From assembly GCA_963784935.1 (NCBI GenBank), contig CAWATD010000006.1:350572-414571 (forward strand): a stretch of 64,000 nt of DNA, read 5' to 3'. The translations under genes and the position numbers were made by a program. Below the pieces are notes generated by a model, which was not told the DNA's origin, made no database searches, and saw nothing but the letters and a program-made list of their open reading frames with translations. Source of the stretch: an uncultured Acidobacteriota bacterium (GTDB lineage: Bacteria; Acidobacteriota; Thermoanaerobaculia; UBA5066; Gp7-AA6). Positions 2,022 through 58,988 of the stretch are shown here, piece after piece; position 1 is the first letter of the stretch; each line of letters starts with the position of its first letter.

Positions 2022-3134
2022 CTAGACGTCGCCGAGGCTTCGCCGATATTCCCGGTCGAACGCGGCGAGCAGGCTCTCCTCTTTCGAGTACAGGCCGGGG
2101 CGGTAGGCCCGCGACGAGACACCGCGCTGCGCGAGCTCGCACATGTGCCAGTCCTGCCGGTTCGTCACGTCCCAGATCTCGATACCGTCGTTGGGGTCGA
2201 ATGCCGGGCTGGCCATCGTCTCGGGCGCAAAGAGGAAGTCGCACGAGACTCGCGTCCGGTCGACCGCGAGAGGCATCAAACGCGTCGCCATGACGAAGTC
2301 GGGCTGGATCGTGAGAAACGCACCCGGGAAGATCGAGTAGTAGTACACGCGCTGGCGTTCGTCCGCGGGCAGGTCGCCGAGGGGCGCCCCGCAGAGGCGC
2401 CCGCTTATGGTCAGGCTGCCGCCCGGCTCGTTGATGAGCATGTAGCCGCCGAGAACGCTCCCGTCGCGCAGGTTGTTGGCGCCGCTCCGGTAGTGCGAGA
2501 GCTTCGCCAGCGCCGGATGGACGGGCGGGCAGTGGTAGCACTCCGAGAAGTTCTGGAAGATGAGCTTCCAGTTTGCGGCGACCTCGTACTCGACCTGGCG
2601 CGCCGTCGCGAGCAGCGGCAGCCGCCAGGGCGCAAAGCGGCCGAGCAGGGGGGCCAGGGCTTCCTCGAGCGGCTGGGGATCGGCGGCGAGGTTGAGGAAC
2701 AGGAATCCCTCCCACTCCCCGAGCGCCGCTGGCGCGAGAGGGTGCTCCGCCTTGTCGAACCACGGCACGTCGGCCATGTGCGGCGCGCCGAGGAGGGCGC
2801 CGTCGAGCCCGTAGGTCCAGGCGTGGTACGGGCACCGGATCCCGCCCTCAAAATGTCCCCGCTCCGCCTCACACACGCGCGTGCCGCGGTGCCGGCAGAC
2901 GTTGTAGAAAGCGTGCGCTCGGCCGTCCTTGCCCCGCACGAGCAGGAGGCTCTCCGCACCGACCGGAGCCAGGACGAAGTCGCCCGGCTCGCGGATCGCG
3001 TCGCCGCGGCCGACGCACAGCCAGCGCCGCGAGAATATCCGCTCCTGCTCGGCGGCGAAGAGATCCGGGGACGTGTAGTACCGACCCGGAAGCGTCGTTG
3101 CCCGCTCGGTCAGGGAGTGGCCCGTGTATTCCAT
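2022..3134 (-). CDS. Rieske [2Fe-2S] aromatic-ring-hydroxylating oxygenase, alpha subunit-like
   Basis: Real start is MEYTGHS (CAT at 3132-3134) inside the 1001-aa track ORF. Rieske motif CRHRG...CPYHAW; C-terminal catalytic domain contains NFSECYHCPPVHP. Confidence 0.85.
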   Translation of the reverse strand: MEYTGHSLTERATTLPGRYYTSPDLFAAEQERIFSRRWLCVGRGDAIREPGDFVLAPVGAESLLLVRGKDGRAHAFYNVCRHRGTRVCEAERGHFEGGIRCPYHAWTYGLDGALLGAPHMADVPWFDKAEHPLAPAALGEWEGFLFLNLAADPQPLEEALAPLLGRFAPWRLPLLATARQVEYEVAANWKLIFQNFSECYHCPPVHPALAKLSHYRSGANNLRDGSVLGGYMLINEPGGSLTISGRLCGAPLGDLPADERQRVYYYSIFPGAFLTIQPDFVMATRLMPLAVDRTRVSCDFLFAPETMASPAFDPNDGIEIWDVTNRQDWHMCELAQRGVSSRAYRPGLYSKEESLLAAFDREYRRSLGDV

Positions 3135-11728: not shown

Positions 11729-13341
11729 ACTCCGGGCCACTCGAGGTCGTCCCGCTCGGCGGCGTCGGCGAATTCGGGCGCAACGTGCTCTGGCTCTCTT
11801 CCGGCGGCTCGAGCATCCTCGTCGATGTCGGGGTCTCGTTTCCCGACGAGAGCTTTCCCGGGATCGATCGCATCGCGCCGGACCTCTCGGTCCTGCGCGG
11901 CGAGCGGATCGACGGCGTCTTCCTGACGCACGGCCACGAAGACCACATCGGCGCCCTGCCGTTCCTGCGCGAGTGGTGCCAGGCGCCCGTTTACGGATTT
12001 CCCTTCACGCTGGCGCTCGCCCGCCGGCGGCTCGAGGAAACCGAGGCGTCCCTCGACCGCCTGATCGAGGCGCGGGGCCGCGAGCCGATCCATGCGGGGG
12101 CCTTCACGGTGACGTTCTTCCGCGTCTCCCACTCCGTGCCCGGCTCGGCGGCCGTGCTCGTCGAGGCGGGCGGCCGCCGCCTTTTCCACTCCGGCGACTT
12201 TAAGCTCGATGACGATCCTCCCGACGGCGAAACGACCGACCGCGAGGGGATCGCGGCCGCGGTCGGCGCGGGCGTGGACCTCGCCCTCGTGGACTCGACC
12301 AACGCGGAGCGGCCGGGCCGGTCCCAGTCCGAGCGCGTGGCGGGCGCCGGACTGCGAGCGGCGTTCGCGGGGGAGCGGGGGCGGATCATCCTGACGACCT
12401 TCTCGAGCCACGTCGCGCGCGTGTCGCAGGCCGCCGAGGAAGCGCTCGCGGCGGGCCGGCGCGTGGCCCTGCTCGGGCGCAGCATGCGCGCGGTCGCGGA
12501 GATCGCGGAACGATTCGGGCGCCTGCGCCTGCCGGCGGGCTCGCGGCCGGCAGCCGCGGACCTGCGGGCGATCCCGCCCGGCCGCCTGCTCTGCGTGGCG
12601 TCCGGAAGCCAGGGCGAACCGTTTTCGGCGCTCTACCGCCTCGCGCTCGGCGAGCACGGGGATCTCGAGCTCGCCGAGGGGGACGTGGTCCTGCTCTCGG
12701 CGCGCACGATTCCGGGCCACGAGCGGTCGGTCAATCGCATGAGCGACCACCTGGTGCGCCGGGGCGCGCGCGTCGTGCGCGAGACCGAGCCGCCGATCCA
12801 CGTCTCCGGGCACGCGCACCGCGACGAGATCGCGGAGTGGATTCGCATGGTCCGGCCCCGCGCGGTCATGCCCGTCCACGGAGACCGCCGCATGCTCGCG
12901 GCCGCGGGCCAGATCGCTGTCGCCGAAGGGGTCGCGCCCGGGCGCGTCCACCTGCTGGACAACGGCGACCGGCTCACGCTCGGGGCCGACCGGGAGACCG
13001 TCGCGCCGAGGTCCGTCGCGTGCGGCGCGGTCTACCTCGACGGCCGTACCGAGACCGTCGGGCCCGAGATCGTGCGCGAGCGGCGCCACCTTGCTGCGGA
13101 AGGCGTCGTGGTCATCCTCGTCCGGGGCGACGAGGTGGACGTCATTTCCCGCGGCGTCGCGGCGGACGAGCGCGAGCTCGCGGGCGAGGTCGCGCGCGCG
13201 GCCCGCGCCGTGCTCGCCCGCGCGAGCGATGAAGAGCGCAGCGACCCCGAGTGGCTGCGCGCGGAGATCGCGATTGCCGCGAAGCGGGCCTGCCGCCGCG
13301 CGCTCGACCTGCGGCCCGTGATCGTGCCGGTGGTCGTCTGA
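11725..13341 (+). CDS. rnj: ribonuclease J (metallo-beta-lactamase / beta-CASP)
   Basis: GTG at 11725 overlaps the rsmA stop (GTGA). Contains PLGGVGEFGRN and the THGHEDHIGALP motif; 538 aa. Confidence 0.9.
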   Translation: MNSGPLEVVPLGGVGEFGRNVLWLSSGGSSILVDVGVSFPDESFPGIDRIAPDLSVLRGERIDGVFLTHGHEDHIGALPFLREWCQAPVYGFPFTLALARRRLEETEASLDRLIEARGREPIHAGAFTVTFFRVSHSVPGSAAVLVEAGGRRLFHSGDFKLDDDPPDGETTDREGIAAAVGAGVDLALVDSTNAERPGRSQSERVAGAGLRAAFAGERGRIILTTFSSHVARVSQAAEEALAAGRRVALLGRSMRAVAEIAERFGRLRLPAGSRPAAADLRAIPPGRLLCVASGSQGEPFSALYRLALGEHGDLELAEGDVVLLSARTIPGHERSVNRMSDHLVRRGARVVRETEPPIHVSGHAHRDEIAEWIRMVRPRAVMPVHGDRRMLAAAGQIAVAEGVAPGRVHLLDNGDRLTLGADRETVAPRSVACGAVYLDGRTETVGPEIVRERRHLAAEGVVVILVRGDEVDVISRGVAADERELAGEVARAARAVLARASDEERSDPEWLRAEIAIAAKRACRRALDLRPVIVPVVV

Positions 13342-13415: not shown

Positions 13416-14234
13416 GTGAGCTGGCTCGACGCCATCATCCTCGGAATCATCCAGGGACTGACCGAATTCATCCCCGTTTCCTCCGATGGACACCTTTCCG
13501 CGGCCGAGATGCTGATGCCGCGCTTCGGCCAGGTCGGCCTGCTCTTCGACGTCATGGTGCACATGGGCACCCTGGCGGCAATCGTCATCTACTACCGCAA
13601 GCTCCTCGCGGATGAGGTCGCCGGCCTCGTTTCGCGCGACCTCGCCGAGCGGGCCAGGGCGTGGCGCCTGGCGATGCTGCTGCTCGTCGCGACGATTCCG
13701 ACCGGGATCGTCGGCCTGTTCATGAAGCACTACGTCGAGCAGACCAAGACGAACCCGCAATTCGTCGGGGCCATGGAGATCCTGACCGGCCTCTATCTCG
13801 CGGTGTCGTACTTCCGGCGGGGCGGGACCAAGGACCTCGAGACCATGACCTACCTCGACGCCTTCATCATCGGCGCCGTACAGGGCTTCGCCGTGCTCCC
13901 CGGGCTCTCGAGATCCGCTTCCACGATCGGCTTTGGCCTGATGCTCGGGTTGGCGGCCCGCTGGGCGGCGGACTACACGTTCCTGCTCGCCATACCGGCC
14001 ATCGTCGGCGCGGCGGGTGTCGAGATCATTTCCGCGCTGCGGCACAACGGAGCAGGATTCTTCGCGACGCCCGATTTCGCCCGGTACCTTGTCGGTGCGG
14101 CCGTCGCCGGGATCGTGGGCTACATGACGATCGGGTTCCTGATCCGGATGGTCTCCACCCGGAAGGTCCACTGGTTCGCGCTCTACTGTTTCGTCTTCGG
14201 GCTCGTCCTGATCTTCTTCTTTCCGAAGCCCTAG
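13416..14234 (+). CDS. uppP: undecaprenyl-diphosphate phosphatase
   Basis: 272 aa. N-terminal QGLTEFIPVSSDGHL, polytopic membrane protein. TAG stop lies inside a CTAG at 14231-14234. Confidence 0.9.
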   Translation: MSWLDAIILGIIQGLTEFIPVSSDGHLSAAEMLMPRFGQVGLLFDVMVHMGTLAAIVIYYRKLLADEVAGLVSRDLAERARAWRLAMLLLVATIPTGIVGLFMKHYVEQTKTNPQFVGAMEILTGLYLAVSYFRRGGTKDLETMTYLDAFIIGAVQGFAVLPGLSRSASTIGFGLMLGLAARWAADYTFLLAIPAIVGAAGVEIISALRHNGAGFFATPDFARYLVGAAVAGIVGYMTIGFLIRMVSTRKVHWFALYCFVFGLVLIFFFPKP

Positions 14235-14240
14235 ACCCAA

Positions 14241-14371
14241 CTCGTGTTCCGTCACCGAGGTGTTGATAGCGCCATGCGGCTTCTTGCAACCACCGCGGCC
14301 CTCGCTCCTGGGCCTCCTTGCATCGTTCGAGCGGAGAGATTGGTATCGTGACTTCGGTTACAGGACACTAG
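14241..14371 (+). repeat. copy A of a ~123-nt intergenic element (core 14245-14367), flanked by CTCG / CTAG
   Basis: Aligns by hand over its full length with 45892-46022 and 57489-57620. The first 17 nt pair with the last 17 nt (15/17). It sits exactly between the convergent stops of uppP and the ORF at 14368-14586. Confidence 0.85.
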
Positions 14372-14586
14372 CCGCCGCCGGGGCGGGTGCGGTGAGCATG
14401 GCGCGTGCCGAGGCGGATCGCCCCGTACACGAGCACGCAGCACAGGAAGTCGATGAGCAGGCCCACGTCGAATCCGAACGCCTGGTGCTGGAGCGCCGGC
14501 GGCAGCGACGGGTGCAGGACCGCGAAGTAGATCCCGTTGCCCGCGAGGATGGCGATCAGGTATTCGACCCAGCGGCGCGGCGTCAC
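14368..14586 (-). CDS. small two-TM membrane protein (hypothetical)
   Basis: 72 codons from GTG 14586. Nearly every codon ends in G/C. Two hydrophobic segments (WVEYLIAILAGNGIYFAVL, VGLLIDFLCCVLVYGAI). 10 nt downstream of the preceding gene. Its TAG stop is the CTAG at the right edge of repeat copy A. Confidence 0.55.
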   Translation of the reverse strand: MTPRRWVEYLIAILAGNGIYFAVLHPSLPPALQHQAFGFDVGLLIDFLCCVLVYGAIRLGTRHAHRTRPGGG

Positions 14587-32076: not shown

Positions 32077-32103
32077 CTAGCACTCGTCATCGAGGAGTGC
32101 TAG
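32077..32103. promoter_or_regulatory. CIRCE operator (HrcA binding site) upstream of groES
   Basis: CTAGCACTC-N9-GAGTGCTAG is a perfect 9-bp inverted repeat with a 9-nt spacer. It matches the consensus TTAGCACTC-N9-GAGTGCTAA and lies 60 nt upstream of the groES ATG. Confidence 0.9.
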
Positions 32104-43585: not shown

Positions 43586-45895
43586 GTGGACGAAGACGAA
43601 TCCGCGCGCGCGCGGCTGGTTTCGCTGCCGATGTGGGTGTACCGGCACCGGGTCCCGATCCTCGTCGGCTTCGGGAGCCTGTTGCTCGCCGGCGTGATCG
43701 CGCTCGGATACTTCACCACGCGCGTGGTGGCGCGCTTCGATGGCCGGCGATGGAATCTCCCGTCGCGGATCTACTCGGATCTCTACACCCTGCGCCCCGG
43801 GGACGCGGCCTCGATTCCGGTGCTCTGCGCCAAGCTCGGGCGGCTCTTCTACCAGGAGTCCGACGGGCCGCCGGAGCGGCCCGGGCACTTCCGGCGCGAG
43901 AAGGACGCCCTCGAGATCCACACCCGCGGCTTCCGGTACCCGGGGCGCACGTTCCCGGGCGCACGCGTCCGCATCGTGGTCGGGTCCGGCCGCGCGCGGG
44001 CGCTGACCGACGCGGCGGGAGACGCGGTGCCGGCGCTCAACCTGGAACCAGAACTGCTGGGGTCGGTGTTCGGAGCGGAACTCGAGGACCGGACGGTCAT
44101 CCGCCTCTCCGAGGCGCCGCAGTCGCTGGTCGACGCCATCCTCGTGACGGAGGACCGGGAGTTCTTCCGACACACCGGCGTTTCGGTGCGGCGCCTCTTC
44201 GGAGCCGTGTTCCGGACGCTGACGGGCGGCATGAAGCAGGGCGGCTCGACACTGACCCAGCAGCTCGTCAAGAACCTCTACCTCTCGCCCGAGCGCACTT
44301 TGCGCCGCAAGGCCACCGAGGCCGTGATGGCCGTGGTGCTCGACGCCCGTTACTCGAAGGACGAGATCCTCGAGGCGTACTTGAACGAGATCTACCTCGG
44401 ACGGCGGGGCGCGATCGCCGTGACGGGCGTCGGCGAGGCGGCGCGCTACTACTTCGGCGCGGAGGTCTCGGACCTCGACCTGGCCGAGTCCGCCACGCTG
44501 GCCGGAATGATCCGGGCGCCCAACGCGTATTCGCCGTTGCGCAATCCCGAGCGCGCGCGTCAGCGCCGCGACCTCGTCCTGCGCCTCATGCACGAGGAAG
44601 GGAAGGTCGACGAGGCCGCGATGCGCGCCGCGATGGCGGAGCCGATCACGCCCCGGACCCGCGTGGAGGACCGGACCCGCGCGCCGCATTTCGTCGATTT
44701 CGTCAAGGGCGAGCTCGCCGAGCGCTACGGCCAGCAGCTCCAGAGCGAAGGCCTCCAGGTCTACACGACCCTGGACGTGGATCTGCAGCAGGCCGGGCAG
44801 CGCGCCGTGACGCAGGGCCTCGAGAGTCTCGAGAAGGCGTACAGGCGCCTGACCTCGGCCTCGAGGGAGGCGCCGCTCCAGGGCGCGCTGATCGTGCTCG
44901 AGCCGCAGACCGGCGGCGTGCGCGCGCTCGTGGGAGGCCGCGACTACCGCCTCTCGCAGTTCAACCGCGTCACGCAGGCCCACCGCCAGCCGGGGAGTCT
45001 CTTCAAGCCGTTCGTCTACCTCGCGGCCTTCGCCCGCCGCGACATGGATCCTCCCGTGACGCCGGCGACGATCCTGATGGACTCGCCGATCACGGTCGAG
45101 TGGGGGCAGAAGACCGACGAGGAAACGTGGACGCCGCGCAACTATGACGGCGACTACCGAGGCCCGATGTCGGCGCGCCATGCGCTCGAGCGATCGATCA
45201 ACATCCCGACCGTGCGCGTCTCGCTGATGGCGGGCCTTCCGTTCGTGCTCGGCGCGGCCAGGGGTGCGGGCATCGGATCGCGGCTGCGCGGCTACCCCTC
45301 GGTCGCGCTCGGGGCCTTCGAGATCTCGCCGATGGAGATCGCGGGTGCCTACGCCGTCTTTGCCAACAGCGGCGTCCGCGTGGCACCGAACGCCATCGTC
45401 GGCGTCATGACCGGCGACGGGACCGTGCTCGACCGCAAGGCCGCGCCGCTTTCCCCGGCGCTCCCGGCCGACGCCGTCTTCCTCGTCAATTCCATCCTGA
45501 AGGGAGCGGTCGACCACGGCACCGCGGCCGGGGCGCGCGCGCGCGGCCTGGCCGGCGTGCTGGCAGGCAAGACCGGGACCACCAACGACGGGCGGGACGC
45601 GTGGTTCGTGGGTTTTTCACCGCGATTCCTCACGGCAGTCTGGGTCGGCTACGACGACAATCGCGGCCTGAACCTCTCCGGAACGCAGGCCGCGGTGCCC
45701 ATCTTCGCCGACTTCGCGCGTTCGGCACCGGCGCAGTTCTTCGCGGAGGACTTTCCGGTCCCCTCCGACATCGTGACGGCAACGATCGATCCGGAGACGG
45801 GATTTCTCGCCGCGCCCGGTTGCCCGCAGCCTGCGACCGAAAGCTTCATCGAGGGCACGGCGCCGACGACGGTGTGCCCGAGGCACGGTGGCTAG
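43586..45895 (+). CDS. class A penicillin-binding protein (PBP1A family: transglycosylase + transpeptidase)
   Basis: 769 aa. GT51 motifs EDREFFRHTG and GGSTLTQQLVKN; transpeptidase motifs SLFKP and KTGTTND. TAG stop lies inside a CTAG at 45892-45895. Confidence 0.92.
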   Translation: MDEDESARARLVSLPMWVYRHRVPILVGFGSLLLAGVIALGYFTTRVVARFDGRRWNLPSRIYSDLYTLRPGDAASIPVLCAKLGRLFYQESDGPPERPGHFRREKDALEIHTRGFRYPGRTFPGARVRIVVGSGRARALTDAAGDAVPALNLEPELLGSVFGAELEDRTVIRLSEAPQSLVDAILVTEDREFFRHTGVSVRRLFGAVFRTLTGGMKQGGSTLTQQLVKNLYLSPERTLRRKATEAVMAVVLDARYSKDEILEAYLNEIYLGRRGAIAVTGVGEAARYYFGAEVSDLDLAESATLAGMIRAPNAYSPLRNPERARQRRDLVLRLMHEEGKVDEAAMRAAMAEPITPRTRVEDRTRAPHFVDFVKGELAERYGQQLQSEGLQVYTTLDVDLQQAGQRAVTQGLESLEKAYRRLTSASREAPLQGALIVLEPQTGGVRALVGGRDYRLSQFNRVTQAHRQPGSLFKPFVYLAAFARRDMDPPVTPATILMDSPITVEWGQKTDEETWTPRNYDGDYRGPMSARHALERSINIPTVRVSLMAGLPFVLGAARGAGIGSRLRGYPSVALGAFEISPMEIAGAYAVFANSGVRVAPNAIVGVMTGDGTVLDRKAAPLSPALPADAVFLVNSILKGAVDHGTAAGARARGLAGVLAGKTGTTNDGRDAWFVGFSPRFLTAVWVGYDDNRGLNLSGTQAAVPIFADFARSAPAQFFAEDFPVPSDIVTATIDPETGFLAAPGCPQPATESFIEGTAPTTVCPRHGG

Positions 45896-46022
45896 CGTTC
45901 TGTCACCGAAGCGTTGATAGCGCCATGCGGCTTCTTACACCCACCGTGGCCCTCGCGCGTGGACCTTCTTGCATCTTTCGAGCGGAGAGATTGGCATCGT
46001 GACTTCGGTGACAGGACACTCG
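45892..46022 (+). repeat. copy B of the ~123-nt element (core 45896-46018), flanked by CTAG / CTCG
   Basis: Full-length hand alignment with copies A and C. Best terminal stem (16/17 pairs). The left CTAG contains the PBP stop codon. Confidence 0.85.
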
Positions 46023-46078
46023 ACGAGGCGGCCCGTCGACGGCCTGCGGTCTGATAAATTCACCGATTCGGTCATCTC

Positions 46079-49003
46079 GTGAAAAGACGCAATCCACTCC
46101 GCCCCACGCCGATCCGCATCCGCGGCGCCCGGACGCACAACCTCAAGAACATTTCGGCCGACATTCCGCTCGGCCGCCTGACGGTCATCACCGGCGTGTC
46201 GGGCTCGGGCAAGTCGTCGCTGGCCTTCGACACCCTCTACGCCGAGGGGCAGCGGCGCTATGCCGAGTCGCTCTCGACCTACGCGCGCCAGTTTCTCGAG
46301 CGCCTCGACCGGCCGGACGTGGATTCGATCGAGCCGGTGCCGCCGGCGATCGCGCTCGAGCAGAAGAACGGCGTGCGCAACGCGCGCTCGACGGTCGGAA
46401 CGCAGACCGAGATCCACGACAGTCTGCGGCTGCTGTATGCGCACGGCGGCACGACCGTGTGTCCCGACTGCGGCGCCGATGCCGTGGGGGGAGGCGTGGA
46501 CCGGGCTCTCGAAGAGCTGTGCGCGACCGAGGATGGCGCCCGGGCGGTCCTCGTCGCGCCCCTGCGGTGGAAAGACACGGCGACGCCGGTCTCCGGGCGT
46601 CGCAGGCGGGCGGTCGGCGACGGGACGCGGCTGGCCGAGTACAAGCGTGCCGGCTTCTTCCGGGCGCTGGCGCCTTCGGGCGAGATCGTCGAGCTGGGCG
46701 ACGAGGCGTCGGCCCTTCTCGACGCGGAGGGCCGCCTGCGGCTCGTCGTGGGCCGCTTCGTCATCGGCGCCGCGTCGCGCCCGGAGATCGCAGCCGCGGC
46801 CGAAACGGCATTTTCGCTCGCGGGGTCGCTCGAGGCGCGCATGGGCGAGCGCGTGCGGACCTTCCGGCGCGGCCTCCACTGTCCGCGCTGCGGGCGCGAG
46901 TTCCGCGATCCGACGCCACCGCTGTTCGCCTTCAATTCCCCGCTCGGCGCCTGCGCCGTCTGTCAGGGTTTCGGACGCGTGATTGGCGTGGACCTCGAGA
47001 AGGCAATCCCCGATCGCAGCCTGGCGCTCTCGGATCGCCCGATTGCACCCTGGAACACGCCGGCATACGAGTCTGCCTACGACGACCTGTTCCGCGCCTG
47101 CCGCCGCTACTCGGTGCGCACCGACGTGCCGGTGTCGCGCCTGTCCGCGCACGAACGGGAGGTGCTGATCAAGGGGCGCGGGGACTTCTACGGCGTCCAG
47201 GGCTTCTTCGACTGGCTGGAGACCAAGCGGTACAAGATTCACGTCCGAGTCCTGCTGGCGCGCTACCGCGCGTACTCGCTCTGCGGTTCCTGCCGCGGAG
47301 CCCGCCTCGCCGCGCCGGCGCTGTGGGTCCGATTCCGCGGCAGGACGATCGCCGAGCTCGTGGACATGTCGCTCAGGGATCTGAGGGTGTTTCTCGACGG
47401 GCTCTCGCTTTCGGCGGCGGAACAGGCGCGCCTCGGGTCGGTCGTTGCCGAGCTCAGGGCGCGGGTGCGTTACATGAACGACGTGGGGCTCGACTACCTG
47501 ACGCTCGCGCGCCCGGCCCGGACCCTGTCGGGCGGCGAGTCGCAGCGCATCGGCCTGGCCTCCGCGCTGGGGGGGGCCCTGACCGGAACCCTGTACGTGC
47601 TCGACGAGCCGACGATCGGCCTGCACGCGGCCGACACGAAGCGGCTGCTCGCGATCCTCCGGCGTCTGGCCGACCGCGGCAACACCGTGGTCGTCGTGGA
47701 GCACGATCCCGAAGCCATCGAGTCGGCGGACCACGTGATCGACCTCGGCCCCGATGCGGGCAGCCGGGGAGGGCAGGTGCTGTTCGCGGGGACCCCCCGC
47801 GCCCTCGCGCGCGTGAAGGACTCGGCGACCGGGGAGCTCCTGCGCCGCCGCGGGAATCCGGCGCGCGACTCGCGCCCCGCGACGCACGACCCGATCCCGG
47901 GCCGCGGCGCGCGCTCAAGCCCCTCCCGCATCGTTCCCTTCCGCCGCGCGGAGGGCGCCATCACGGTCGTGGGCGCGCGGCAGCACAACCTGCAGAACAT
48001 CACGGTCCGAATCCCGCTCGGACGGCTCGTGGCGCTGGCCGGAGTCTCGGGCTCCGGAAAGTCCACGCTCGTGCGCGACATCCTGCACAACGCGTACGCG
48101 CGCCGGGTCCGCGGCGCGGCGCAATTCGAGGTCGGGGAGCACGATCGCATCGACGGGCTCGAGGGCATCTCCGAGCTGCTGCTGGTCGACCAGAGCCCCC
48201 TCGGCCGCTCGGCGCGCTCGAACCCCGTCACCTACACCAAGGCCTGGGACGAGATCCGCCAGCTCTTCGCCCGCTCCGGACGCGCCCTTTCGCGCGGCAT
48301 CACCCCGCGGGACTTTTCCTTCAATTCGGCCGGCGGCCGCTGCGAGGTCTGCCGCGGCACGGGCTGGCAGACGATCGACATGCAGTTCCTCGCCGACGTC
48401 ACGGTCCGCTGCGAGGCCTGCGACGGGAGACGGTTCCAGCCCCGGGTGCTCGCCGTGCGCCTGCGCGGCAGGAACATCGACGAGGTGCTGGACATGACCG
48501 TCGAGGACGCCGCCGTGTTCTTCGGCGGGGAGGAGAAGATCGTGCGCCGCCTCGAGCCGCTCCTGGAGGCGGGGCTCGGGTATGTCCGGCTCGGGCAACC
48601 CACCGCGACGCTCTCGGGCGGCGAGGCCCAGAGACTCAGGCTGGCGGCCTTTCTGGGGATCCGTCCGGCTTCCACGAACGGGGCTCTGTTTCTGTTCGAC
48701 GAGCCGACGACGGGCCTCCACGCGCGCGACGTGGACCGTCTGCTGGCGACGCTCCGGCGCCTGATCGCGCGCGGCCACTCCGTGCTCGCCGTCGAGCACC
48801 ACCTCGGGTTTCTCGAGGCGAGCGACTGGATCATCGAGCTCGGTCCTGGCGGCGGCGAGGACGGAGGTCGGCTCCTGGGCGAGGGCGCGCCCCGAGACAT
48901 CCGCAGCAACCCGAAGAGTGTGACGGGGCCTTTCCTCGCAGACCCGCGAGCCGCGTTCGGCACCGGTCCAGCCTCTATAATGGGAAAGAAGTCCCTTCGC
49001 TGA
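46079..49003 (+). CDS. uvrA: excinuclease ABC subunit A
   Basis: 974 aa, GTG start. Contains [10 protein letters not shown], two Walker A sites ([18 protein letters not shown]) and zinc-finger Cys pairs. Confidence 0.97.
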
Positions 49004-55301: not shown

Positions 55302-56035
55302 AGAAGCTCTTCGCGATCGTCGGCCGGGAGTGGCGTGCCTATTTCCTCTCGCCGCTCGCCTACGTGATCCTCACGGCCTACATGTTCCTGAACGGCATCA
55401 TCTTTTCGCGCATCGTGGCCTTCCTTTCGGCGCCGGGAGCGCCACGCGAGCGGTTCCTCTCGCTGATGTTCACGAACACGTACTTCTGGATTTTCACGCT
55501 CTTCATCATCCCGATCCTGACGATGCGCCTGCTCGCCGAGGAGCGGCGCTCGGGAACGCTCGAGGTCCTGCTCACGTCCCCGGTTTCCGAGGCGACCGTG
55601 GTCGTCGGAAAATTCCTCGGGGCCTGCGGCTTCTTCCTGGTGCTCTGGGTTCCGAGCGTCCTGTTCATCCTCTTCCTGCGCGCGAAGACCTCGGTCGACC
55701 TCGGCGCGGTGGCCTCGGGGTATGCGGGGATCGCGCTGCTCGGCGCGTACTTCCTGGCGATCGGCACGTTTGCTTCGGCGCTGACGAAGAACCAGATCCT
55801 CGCGGCCATCCTGACCTTCGCGATCCTGATCCCCGTCTTTTCCGTGGGGCTGTTCGAGTCGGGCGCCGACCCGGCGCGGCAGAGCCTGATCGGGTACCTC
55901 AACATCTGGGAGCACATGGACGAGTTCGCGCGGGGCGTGGTCGACACGCGCCGGATCCTGTATTACCTGTCGGGGACGGCCTTCTTCCTGTTCCTCGCGG
56001 CGACGATCCTTTCCTCGAAGAAGGAGACGCCGTGA
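55298..56035 (+). CDS. ABC-2 permease (GldF-like)
   Basis: GTGA overlap. 245 aa with 6 TM helices. Contains EERRSGTLEVLLTSPVS. Confidence 0.8.
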
Positions 56036-57492
56036 GCGCCCGCTCCACGCGAGTGGGCACGTCGGCGGCCGGCATCCTGCTCGCGGCGGCGCTCTGGCTG
56101 GGCGTGAACTACCTCTCGACGCGCCACTGGAAGCGCTTCGACTGGACGCGGGCGCAGGTGTACTCGCTCTCGGAAACCACGAAGAAGACCCTCGAGGGCC
56201 TCAAGAAGCCCGTGCAGGTGACCGTGTTCATGGTCTCGGGGCGGTCGCGGGTGCTGCCCGAGGTCAAGGAGCTGCTGGCCCGTTACCAGCAGCTCAGCCC
56301 GAAGATCGAGGTCGAGTACCTCGATCCCCAGCGCAACATGGCCCGGGCCGAGGCGCTCGTCAAGGATGCCGGCGTGCGGGAAAACACGGTCGTGTTCCGC
56401 TCCGGCGATCGCCGGAAGTACGTCGACGAGGACAAGCTCGCCGACTTCGACTTTTCGGGCGCCGGCATGGGCGGTGCGGCGACCGTCAAGAGTTTCAAGG
56501 CGGAGGAGGCCTTCACGTCCGCCATCCTCTCGGTCACCGAGGACCGGCAGTCCCGCGTGTACTTCACGAAGGGGCACGGCGAGGCGGCGATCGATTCGAC
56601 GGAGCGCGGGCGCGGCTATGCCGACGCCCGGCAAGAGCTCGAGCGCGGCAACCTGGTCGTCTCGACGTGGGAGGCGCTCGGAAAGGACGACCTTCCGAAG
56701 GACGCGGACCTCATCGTCGTGGCCGGGCCCCGCACGGCGTTTCTCGAGCCGGAAGCCGCGGCGCTCGCGAAGTATCTCGGGGCGGGCGGGCGCGCACTGC
56801 TGCTCCTCGATCCGATCCTGCCGGGCCCGGGCGCGCCGCCCGCGGACCTCGGCCTCGGTGCCCTGCTCGGAAAGTACGGCATCCGGCTGGGCGACGACCT
56901 CGTCGTGGATCCCGCCAACGCCCTTCCGAATGTGGGGGCCGAAACCCTGGTTGCCAGCAAGTACGGCAATCATCCGATCGTACGATCGCTGGCCGCCGAA
57001 GGCCTCCCGGCCGTGTTCCAGCTCGCGCGTTCGGTGACGAAGGCCGAAAAGGATCCACAGGGCCTTTCGGAGGCCATGCTCATCGAGACGTCCGCGGAGG
57101 GCTGGGGCGAGACCAACCTCAAGCAGCTCGATTCCGGGCTCAAGAAGGAGCCCGGGGACACGCCGGGGCCGGTTTCGCTGGCCGTTGCCGTGGGCCCCGC
57201 CGACGAGAGGAAGAAGGGTGATCCGTCGCCGCGGCTCGTCGTGTTCGGCAACTCCCGGTTCGCAGCCAGCGGGTCCATTCAGAACGGTGCCAACGGCACG
57301 CTGTTCGCGAACGCAGCGCAGTGGCTGGCCGGCCGGGACCGCCAGGTCGGCATCGCGCCGAAGACGCCGGAGCAGGCATCGCTGACGCTCACCGAAAACC
57401 AGGTCATCCGGATCGGCTGGACGGTCATCGTCGGGCTGCCGGCCCTGGCCATCCTGCTCGGCGTCTGGGTCTGGTACCGGCGGCGGGACTAG
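56032..57492 (+). CDS. GldG-like ABC transporter auxiliary protein
   Basis: GTGA overlap. 486 aa with N- and C-terminal TM helices flanking a large soluble domain. TAG stop lies inside a CTAG at 57489-57492. Confidence 0.8.
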   Translation: MSARSTRVGTSAAGILLAAALWLGVNYLSTRHWKRFDWTRAQVYSLSETTKKTLEGLKKPVQVTVFMVSGRSRVLPEVKELLARYQQLSPKIEVEYLDPQRNMARAEALVKDAGVRENTVVFRSGDRRKYVDEDKLADFDFSGAGMGGAATVKSFKAEEAFTSAILSVTEDRQSRVYFTKGHGEAAIDSTERGRGYADARQELERGNLVVSTWEALGKDDLPKDADLIVVAGPRTAFLEPEAAALAKYLGAGGRALLLLDPILPGPGAPPADLGLGALLGKYGIRLGDDLVVDPANALPNVGAETLVASKYGNHPIVRSLAAEGLPAVFQLARSVTKAEKDPQGLSEAMLIETSAEGWGETNLKQLDSGLKKEPGDTPGPVSLAVAVGPADERKKGDPSPRLVVFGNSRFAASGSIQNGANGTLFANAAQWLAGRDRQVGIAPKTPEQASLTLTENQVIRIGWTVIVGLPALAILLGVWVWYRRRD

Positions 57493-57620
57493 TGTTCTGG
57501 CACCGAAGTTTCGATAGCGCCGTGCGGCTTCTCACAACCACCGTGGCCCTCGCTCTTGGGCCTTACTCGCATCTTTCAAGCGAAGAGATTGGCATCGTGA
57601 CTTCGGTTACAGGACACTAG
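57489..57620 (+). repeat. copy C of the ~123-nt element (core 57493-57616), flanked by CTAG / CTAG
   Basis: Full-length hand alignment with A and B (one extra nt). Perfect 4-bp direct repeats at both ends. Lies between the gldG-like stop and the next same-strand start at 57630. Confidence 0.85.
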
Positions 57621-57629
57621 GGTCCGGCC

Positions 57630-58988
57630 GTGTCCGCCAGGAAGCTGCTCGCACTGACCGCGGTGGTCGCCGTCCTTTTCGGGTTCATCTTTCTCTTCGA
57701 GCGTCGTTTGCCGACGACCGAAGAGCGGTCGCGCAAAGGCGACCTCTACTGGGACATTCCACAGGACCAGGTCGAGCGGATCGAGCTCGCCCGTTCGGGC
57801 GAGACCCTGGAGTTCCAGCGGGCCGGCGAGGCCGGTTGGAAGATGATCAAGCCCGAAAAATACCCGGCCGACCCGTTTGCCGTCGGGAGCGTGTTGTCCG
57901 GGCTTGCCGAGTTCAAGCGCGCGGGCGGCGAGGACGCGGGCGATGCGCGGCCGGCTGACTACGGGCTCGACAAACCCGCGGCGAAGGCCACGATCGTCTG
58001 GAGCGACCCGGCGGACCCGAAGTCGCGCAAGACGCGGACGATCGAGTTCGGCGCCCCGGTTCCCGGCACCGATGTCGTCGCCGCGCGTGTGGAAGGGACG
58101 CAAAAGGTCCTTTTCGTGCCGGCGGCCGTGCTCGCGTCCCTGAGGAAGAGCGCGGACGACTTCGAGAGCCGGGAGCTCTTCGGCGGGGCCCCGGCGGACA
58201 TGACGCGGCTGGAGATCCTGCGGGGGCGGGGCCGGCTCGTCTTCGCACGCAAGCAGGGAGTCTGGTGGCTGGTCGAGCCGATGTCGGACCTCGCCGATGC
58301 GGCGGAGGTCGACCGGCTGGAGGCGTCCCTGCTGGGGCTCCGGGCCAGGGATTTCATCCACGGTGGCCAGGATCTGGCGGCGTTCGGCTTGAGCCCGGCG
58401 CTCTTCCGCGTCTCGATCACGGGCGCAAAGGGCTTAGTCAGCGCGGTCGACTTCGGCGCGACGCGTTCGGACGGCAACACGATTTACGCGCGGCGCGATG
58501 GGCAGGTCCTCACCGTCGAACGCGACATCTCGGAAGAGCTGTCGAAGGAAGCCGAGGCGTTCCGGGGCCGCGCGCTGCTCGGCTTCCACAGGGGAGAAGC
58601 CGCGGGGATCGATGCGGCGTTCGGGAAAACGCGCATCCTCCTCGACTTCAACGGCGGCGGATGGAACTCCGGGGGCCGTCCTGTGCTGGCGGCGGCGGCC
58701 GACGATGCGCTCGGGGCTCTGCTCGACCTGAAGTGCAGGGAGTTTGTCGACGAGTCCGCGATGAAAGCGCTCGATCCGGCGGCCGCGACCGTGACGGTCC
58801 GGATGAAGACCGGGGACCCGTGGACCCTGAACCTGCACCCCGGAGCGAACGGGATGATCGCGCGGGTTTCGGCGCGGCCCGGAGGATTCCTCCTGGATCG
58901 GGACGCCGCGGAGAAGCTCGAGGCGGCGCTCCGGAAAGCCGTCGCGGAGGCGACGCCCGCGAAGAAATCGGAAGACGGTAGACGGTAG
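57630..58988 (+). CDS. DUF4340-like protein (usual partner of GldG-type ABC modules)
   Basis: 452 aa, GTG start. N-terminal TM helix. Repeated beta-rich modules (...IELARSGETLEFQRAGEAGWKMIKP...). Confidence 0.7.
   Translation: MSARKLLALTAVVAVLFGFIFLFERRLPTTEERSRKGDLYWDIPQDQVERIELARSGETLEFQRAGEAGWKMIKPEKYPADPFAVGSVLSGLAEFKRAGGEDAGDARPADYGLDKPAAKATIVWSDPADPKSRKTRTIEFGAPVPGTDVVAARVEGTQKVLFVPAAVLASLRKSADDFESRELFGGAPADMTRLEILRGRGRLVFARKQGVWWLVEPMSDLADAAEVDRLEASLLGLRARDFIHGGQDLAAFGLSPALFRVSITGAKGLVSAVDFGATRSDGNTIYARRDGQVLTVERDISEELSKEAEAFRGRALLGFHRGEAAGIDAAFGKTRILLDFNGGGWNSGGRPVLAAAADDALGALLDLKCREFVDESAMKALDPAAATVTVRMKTGDPWTLNLHPGANGMIARVSARPGGFLLDRDAAEKLEAALRKAVAEATPAKKSEDGRR

Follow-up and report, generated by a model that had tools for sequence, protein, structure and literature searches.

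Our comparative analysis of a 64-kb window of Acidobacteriota DNA (64,000 nucleotides of contig CAWATD010000006.1, assembly GCA_963784935.1, class Thermoanaerobaculia) indicates that three short repeats abutting the 3′ ends of genes are very probably copies of a family of MITEs (miniature transposable elements with inverted repeats) in Thermoanaerobaculia, which has a non-coding core of 123–124 bp and inserts into the tetranucleotide CTAG, and whose association with stop codons is passive. We propose the following model for its spread. A DDE-type transposase, supplied in trans, would insert the element specifically into the palindromic CTAG, after which CTAG would stand at both ends, most simply through a 4-bp target-site duplication. 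The element lands mostly immediately 3′ of genes, with C-preceded TAG stops on either strand serving as targets. Several hallmarks of a bacterial MITE are present: a size within the usual range of about 50-800 bp, lack of coding capacity, terminal inverted repeats (TIRs), a duplication evident from filled and empty sites, and multi-copy polymorphism. The three copies, designated A, B and C, occupy the following positions in the window.

14241-14244: 5′ flank of copy A, reading CTCG (position 3 of CTAG changed A>C), not a stop codon
14245-14367, plus strand: core of copy A, 123 nt, with TIRs at about 14245-14270 and 14342-14367
14368-14371: 3′ flank of copy A, CTAG, whose minus-strand reading gives the open reading frame (ORF) 14368-14586 its TAG stop
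45892-45895: 5′ flank of copy B, CTAG, where the gene for a penicillin-binding protein (PBP) has its stop codon
45896-46018, plus strand: core of copy B, 123 nt, with TIRs at about 45896-45921 and 45993-46018
46019-46022: 3′ flank of copy B, CTCG, a degenerate CTAG, not a stop
57489-57492: 5′ flank of copy C, CTAG, the stop codon of gldG
57493-57616, plus strand: core of copy C, 124 nt, with TIRs at about 57493-57518 and 57591-57616
57617-57620: 3′ flank of copy C, duplicate CTAG, not a stop

The copies, all on the plus strand, are 84-90% identical to one another over about 131 nt, and no fourth copy was detected in the window with up to three mismatches permitted in either of two conserved 20-21-mers. 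The ends of the core form imperfect inverted repeats of ~26 nt, with the consensus TGTTCTGTCACCGAAGTTTCGATAGC set against the reverse complement TGTCCTGTAACCGAAGTCACGATACC (TIRs of the element: TGTYCTGTNACCGAAGT). These ~26-nt repeats are kept in every complete copy that we collected, a divergent subfamily included, and the core starts with TGT (CGT in six copies) and ends with ACA in nearly all of them. In each window copy one intact CTAG flank is the stop of a real gene, encoding a 72-aa membrane protein next to copy A, a PBP1A-family protein next to B and GldG next to C. An earlier note on this DNA, made from the sequence alone, had placed the CTAG and CTCG flanks exactly, and its assignment of stop codons to the PBP gene, to gldG and to the small minus-strand ORF holds, as does its description of the core ends as imperfect inverted repeats.

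Because CTAG is its own reverse complement, a CTAG "direct repeat" equals a 4-bp extension of the inverted repeat, and proof of a target duplication had to come from an empty orthologous site rather than from the window alone. Such a site exists behind gldG in a related contig (L023, 90% amino acid identity), which reads cggcgggaCTAGggtccgtg; in this 3′ junction (...cggcgggaCTAGggtccGTG...) a single CTAG is the gldG stop, and the start of the following DUF4340 gene lies five bases later. The same site is filled in the window, in L025 (96%) and in L024 (87%), reading cggcgggaCTAG[core]CTAGg.... With one CTAG in L023 and CTAG-core-CTAG in the window, L024 and L025, the inserted segment is exactly the core plus 4 bp, and the single CTAG that the earlier note had predicted for an empty orthologous junction is what L023 contains. 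Three relatives lack the element at the PBP site: L028 (89%), where the gene ends in the same ...GGCGG-CTAG stop, and L026 (94%) and L027 (90%), which have TAA stops and no CTAG. At the uppP site, the four relatives L029-L032 (86-91%) all lack the element, and the stop of the small membrane ORF in L029 is an unoccupied CTAG. Relatives lacking the element at orthologous sites are thus 86-94% identical at the amino acid level, and no copies were found in about 75 kb of these related contigs. Conservation at orthologous positions across relatives, which the earlier note had named as the mark of an inherited sequence, is not what we observe; presence and absence differ among relatives, and since the element is not kept at orthologous positions, vertical inheritance is excluded.

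Searching one genome per species (GTDB) for an exact pattern yielded ten further loci in three Acidobacteriota metagenome-assembled genomes (MAGs); searching JGI metagenomes for a pattern that fits either of the two ends yielded twelve loci, one of them a chance match (L015); and orthologous-gene lookups added two copies. Every one of the copies was picked up by an nhmmer profile built from A, B and C. Altogether we count 26 copies, 23 of them beyond the window, at 24 independent sites, all on Thermoanaerobaculia/Acidobacteriota contigs (the window, the three MAGs, and soil or sediment metagenome contigs). CTAG stands at 43 of 48 element ends (21/23 complete 5′ ends and 22/25 3′ ends), and the five other flanks are single-base variants of it: CTCG three times, CGAG and TTAG once each. 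Two copies from the same MAG (L002 and L010) are identical at 131/131 positions, and two from the same sample (L016 and L013) are one base apart, in both cases at unrelated loci; such near-identical dispersed copies are what a repeat family leaves when it has recently been active and has spread from a master copy. Among the variants, L004 has an internal deletion, and L001 and L006 are 5′-truncated. L020 (2814-2945) represents a subfamily whose ~30-nt ends and CTAG flanks match those of the main family and whose interior is unrelated. Both of its ends resemble the main family's 3′-type inverted repeat (...CCGAAGTCNCGATNCCAA) and may be nearer to the ends of the parent insertion sequence (IS). 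An internal ATG...TGA frame of about 26 aa was considered as a small ORF and rejected, as it is broken by frameshifting indels and its ATG is lost in many copies, replaced by AAG, AGG, ATT, ATC and other triplets. The element had no match by blastn in 72,556 plasmids, and no published description of it was found in Rfam, the plasmid collection or the literature searched.

Could the repeats be genes for an RNA instead? A vertically inherited, structured small RNA or 3′-UTR RNA gene, whose CTAG ends would form the base of a closing helix, is suggested by the position of all three window copies on the strand of the upstream gene, by well-conserved interior blocks, and by G-U pairs in the closing helix that favor the plus strand, with lower folding energies than on the minus strand (-52.5 versus -47.4 and -49.8 versus -47.7 kcal/mol). 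The plus-strand RNA of copies B and C folds well below shuffled sequences (z about -4), and that of copy A does not (z = -0.4); the terminal inverted repeat by itself would yield the signal seen in B and C. Across 19 complete copies, RNAalifold returned a covariation term of +0.48, with compensatory changes in 3 of 37 pairs and many pairs broken. Rfam gave no match, either for the whole window at the gathering threshold or for copy B at E<=1, and neither a sigma-70 promoter nor an intrinsic-terminator consensus, U-tract included, is present inside the copies. Relative to the stop-donor gene, the 20 gene-adjacent cases divide into 12 sense and 8 antisense (p = 0.5). The RNA explanation is further at odds with the presence/absence polymorphism at all three orthologous sites, with identical copies at unrelated loci and with a subfamily that has the same ends around a replaced interior, and we regard it as very unlikely. 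Given the lack of covariation and of an Rfam match, and the occurrence of both orientations, the element is a MITE, that is, a mobile element at the DNA level, and not an inherited RNA.

Palindromes behind genes also bring to mind integron attC sites, which are imperfect and of similar length and lie directly 3′ of genes, and the intergenic REP/BIME sequences handled by RAYT proteins. That the repeats belong to either class, and not to a TIR transposon, we consider scarcely credible. The neighbors of the copies are not cassettes but housekeeping genes whose synteny is conserved, the copies occur in both orientations, and the empty site documents a clean insertion with target duplication. The ends read GTTCTGT, which does not match the attC core GTTRRRY; compared with REPs, the element is about four times as long and has a CTAG flank in place of the GTAG at REP heads.

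Why, then, do the copies abut stop codons? CTAG is about 5-fold under-represented in the window, where it occurs 14 times and dinucleotide-preserving shuffles predict 68 occurrences; given this depletion, its presence at four of the six window flanks is far beyond chance. As background we took 56 element-free CTAGs in 277 kb, classified by a conservative local codon-composition test: 28 are stop codons, 26 are intergenic or unclear, and 2 lie inside coding sequence. At least three of the unclear ones coincide with the ends of called genes, so that the stop count is a lower bound. When the same automatic classifier was applied to both sets, 14 of 24 element sites compared with 28 of 56 background CTAGs were stops (p = 0.63), and an active targeting of stop codons beyond the distribution of CTAG, as the phrase "stop-codon-targeting" in the earlier note might imply, is unsupported. 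The stop association is real but passive, a product of target specificity and CTAG distribution with no recognition of stop codons. Insertions fall at gene ends because CTAG is near-absent from coding sequence and at least half of all CTAGs are stops, and since each side of the insertion ends up with a CTAG, neither the host stop nor the protein changes, whichever way the element is oriented.

With hand-curated gene calls, the flank CTAG terminates a real gene at 18 of the 24 independent sites, and in L017 and L018 both flanks are real stops. Pfam matches among the genes so terminated comprise NAD kinase, PpiC rotamase, OMP beta-barrel, halogenase-like, chalcone-isomerase-like, Usp, cytochrome c peroxidase, isocitrate/isopropylmalate dehydrogenase (Iso_dh), YegS-type lipid kinase (DAGK), PlsX, SucD, DUF2127, DUF4760 and 2Fe-2S ferredoxin (Fer2). 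In six copies neither flank is a gene stop; L011, L012, L019 and L021 among these are complete, and L007 and L006 are without a 5′ end. The interpretation offered in the earlier note thus survives in two of its parts, the non-autonomous element inserting into CTAG, which the flanks and the empty site bear out, and the explanation of its position by CTAGs being largely C-preceded TAG stops, in line with the background, where at least half are stops and only two are coding. Its third part, that selection keeps only the duplicate serving as a stop, fails: of 29 non-stop flanks, about 25 still read CTAG, and L012 and L019, which have no adjacent gene, carry CTAG at both ends. All three CTCG variants (5′ of copy A, 3′ of copy B and 5′ of L021) lie on non-stop flanks, a trivial expectation given that flanks serving as stops are not free to mutate.

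Among 65 heuristically called genes in the window, stops are TAG in 31, TGA in 29 and TAA in 5, a high share of TAG for a genome of ~70% GC. G precedes TAG in 20 of these genes, A in 6 and C in 5, and with only 5 of 31 TAG stops being CTAG, the element uses a small subset of them. CTAG is needed for insertion, yet most CTAGs are empty; the CTAG stop at 962-965 is unoccupied, like the uppP stop at 14231-14234. An extended target GCTAGC is not claimed, the outer neighbor being G in 26 of 43 element flanks and 52 of 112 background flanks (p = 0.15).

Several observations weigh against the proposed model. The hand-curated 18 of 24 element sites exceed the 28 of 56 background stops (Fisher p = 0.049), a comparison that is not like for like, as manual rescue was applied to element sites only; there may nevertheless be a modest extra stop bias. 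At the gldG site, the empty relative (90% identity) falls between the filled ones (96% and 87%). Neither a transposase nor a longer element with these TIRs at its ends was found in 290 kb of loci, in plasmids or in viral contigs. And three symmetric partitions of the repeat fit filled and empty sites equally, since CTAG is palindromic: a 4-bp CTAG duplication with ends TGT...ACA, a TA duplication with ends GTGT...ACAC (the element being G+core+C, between flanks C-TA and TA-G), and a blunt insertion separating CT from AG.

The first of these observations has a bearing on a variant of the model, in which the same element, or its transposase, actively favors stops or gene 3′ ends, or in which copies persist there because a hairpin is useful at mRNA 3′ ends. 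Roles of this kind, in stabilization or attenuation of read-through, have been proposed for REP, ERIC and Correia elements. Besides the hand-curated excess, the variant could draw on the occupancy in the window, where three stop-CTAGs and no intergenic CTAGs are occupied, and on the folding of plus-strand RNA from B and C. The excess disappears under a single classifier, and the called-gene ends hidden among the "unclear" background CTAGs narrow it further; six copies, four of them complete, have no gene stop; and a useful hairpin is difficult to reconcile with the 12 versus 8 distribution of orientations, with the unremarkable folding of copy A and with the lack of a U-tract or terminator consensus. 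We therefore hold such active preference or retention to be unlikely, and favor passive insertion into CTAG.

The order of filled and empty relatives at gldG calls for either two independent insertions or one precise excision. The L024 copy is 4-5 differences away from the L016/L013 subfamily, with which it has the TTATAACC variant in common, and 12-14 differences away from the window and L025 copies, which have derived characters of their own in common. On these sequence relationships, two independent insertions into the same gldG CTAG are the more economical reading; a single insertion followed by precise excision is the less economical alternative.

Which transposase family might mobilize the element? 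Because the target is palindromic, an IS5-type 4-bp duplication of a YTAR target, here CTAG, and an IS630-type TA duplication are both compatible with all sites and indistinguishable on them; CTAG at both ends is most simply accounted for by a 4-bp target-site duplication. Read as a CTAG duplication, the element begins with TGTTCTG and ends with CAGGACA, and is not of the GG/GA type. IS5-family elements in ISfinder typically have GG/GA ends, and the IS5 affiliation to which the earlier note pointed is weakened by the TGT ends and not supported. An IS481-type 6-bp NCTAGN duplication was rejected: every copy has T or C directly behind its 5′ CTAG, whatever follows the 3′ CTAG (C 16, A 4, G 2, T 1), and different bases precede the 5′ CTAG (G 10, A 7, T 2, C 1), with A as the last core base in nearly every copy. 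In the 290 kb of loci no second TIR pair at IS-like spacing was present, and the matches of a TIR scan of IMG/VR were chance occurrences in low-GC phages. As neither a transposase nor an autonomous partner emerged from the searched sets, mobilization in trans is something we only infer.

Among the closest described systems is MITEPsy1 of Pseudomonas syringae pv. phaseolicola, which derives from ISPsy2 of the IS5 family, is about 100 nt long with TIRs, targets CTAG or YTAA and leaves a duplication of 4 bp; it is multi-copy, its parent IS is known and its mobility was shown by experimental trapping (PMC3189936). The present family is likewise a small, multi-copy bacterial MITE with TIRs at CTAG. 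It differs in its ends (TGTTCTGTCACCGAAG, TGT...ACA, as opposed to GGAAGGTCTGAAAAAGCC, GGAAGG..., with the IS5-type GG in MITEPsy1), with no sequence similarity between the two, in its host phylum, in its flanks, all of which are CTAG or a one-base variant with no YTAA, and in having no parent IS among the loci, plasmids and viral contigs searched. IS630 inserts at the TA within 5′-CTAG-3′ (Tenzen and Ohtsubo 1991, as cited in PMC2170065). The preference for CTAG and the CTA...TAG flanks are shared with IS630/Tc1-mariner elements and MITEs, and a TA duplication would be compatible with our sites. Other TA contexts are generally accepted in the IS630 family, unlike the essentially invariant CTAG seen here, and no IS630-type transposase or matching TIR was found in the sets searched for a partner (loci, plasmids and viral contigs). 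IS481-family elements (IS481/IS1002, ISLxc2) have TGT ends and a NCTAGN target with a 6-bp duplication, the target TAG serves as the stop of their own transposase, and the palindromic target is easily mistaken for part of an inverted repeat (PMC2516522). The TGT...ACA termini, the CTAG target core and the use of the target TAG as a stop recur in the present family; the 6-bp NCTAGN duplication does not.

Small non-coding hairpin repeats that abut gene ends are also familiar from other bacteria, and the element resembles them in this respect. The Correia/NEMIS, ERIC and RUP elements and the mycobacterial MIRUs are intergenic, often co-transcribed and located within operons near stops or starts, and functional effects have been documented for all four; they differ from the present family in target (TA for Correia and RUP), in structure or in being tandem units (MIRUs). 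To our knowledge, none of these families is defined by a strict CTAG target. With CTAG-targeting IS and at least one CTAG-duplicating MITE already known, the family constitutes no new mechanistic class. It does add a MITE family to the poorly studied, uncultured lineage Thermoanaerobaculia, and it provides a clean natural example of how a palindromic, depleted target can channel insertions to gene ends without damage to proteins. In practical terms, the repeat explains several "intergenic" blocks of ~130 bp and can break assemblies and confuse the annotation of gene ends and operons; in the window it splits the gldG-DUF4340 junction, and it is usable as a strain-level marker of insertion polymorphism.

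We speculate, with considerable doubt, that Thermoanaerobaculia carry a transposition system of near-absolute CTAG specificity that uses the few remaining CTAGs, mostly stops, as scar-free "safe harbors". Three hints point in this direction: the apparently independent insertions at the gldG stop, the L020 subfamily, and an unrelated CTAG-bounded palindrome of 43 nt (CAGGCTGCTGAAA...). If such a system exists, several non-autonomous passengers would compete for a small set of stop-codon landing sites, possibly served by an undescribed transposase lineage, and insertion would cost the protein nothing, with the stop regenerated on both sides.

The 43-nt palindrome merits description in its own right. 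This second, unrelated mini-palindrome, bounded by CTAG on both sides (CTAG-CAGGCTGCTGAAAAATGGATGCGGGCGCCCTTTCAGCAGCCTG-CTAG), lies between convergent genes in L028 (8041-8091). A remnant of it directly follows the MITE in L008 (about 3030-3063), and L006 (1014-1083) contains a chimeric copy that joins the palindrome's 5′ half to the MITE's 3′ half; the palindrome is absent from the window.

The genes beside the three copies are as follows.

13416-14234, plus strand: uppP, undecaprenyl-diphosphatase
14368-14586, minus strand: conserved membrane ORF of 72 aa, convergent with uppP, which supplies the target CTAG of copy A
43586-45895, plus strand: PBP1A-family penicillin-binding protein, with its stop TAG inside the CTAG at 45892-45895
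46079-49003: UvrA-like gene with a GTG start
56032-57492, plus strand: GldG-family ABC-transporter auxiliary protein, start approximate, stop inside the CTAG at 57489-57492
57630-58988, plus strand: DUF4340 gene, next in the gldG operon

The unoccupied CTAG that ends uppP lies 6 nt upstream of the 5′ flank of copy A and 10 nt upstream of its core. The convergent small ORF has no Pfam family. Orthologues of 74-79 aa follow uppP directly, in convergent orientation, in four related contigs (L029-L032), and since these have the same signature, VTPRRW[VI]EYL...CCVLVY[GA]AIRLG, the ORF is a real gene. For gldG, the earlier note had used a 720-aa ORF starting at 55330 (window 55330-57492). Orthologues are 486 aa long and match only the C-terminal 68% of it, from which we conclude that this ORF is over-extended and that the start given above is approximate; in the relatives, an ABC-2 permease gene occupies the place of its upstream part and overlaps gldG by 4 nt. 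The GTG of the DUF4340 gene, 5 nt after the CTAG in the empty site, is 127 nt further away in the window owing to the element.

Downstream of copy B, the motif CTGATAAATTCACCGATTCGG (46051-46071) precedes the GTG of the UvrA-like gene by 7 nt. It is recognizable with a few substitutions in L026, L027 and L028, while the remaining spacer is unalignable, and for this reason it may be a regulatory site; copy B is located upstream of the motif, which stays intact. In the element-free relative L028, a tandem heptamer GGCAGAC of about 6 units (about 12325-12370) directly follows the PBP stop. Two of the 14 CTAGs in the window belong to a CIRCE-type inverted repeat, CTAGCACTC-N9-GAGTGCTAG (32077-32103), upstream of groES/groEL; the HrcA operator consensus is TTAGCACTC-N9-GAGTGCTAA.

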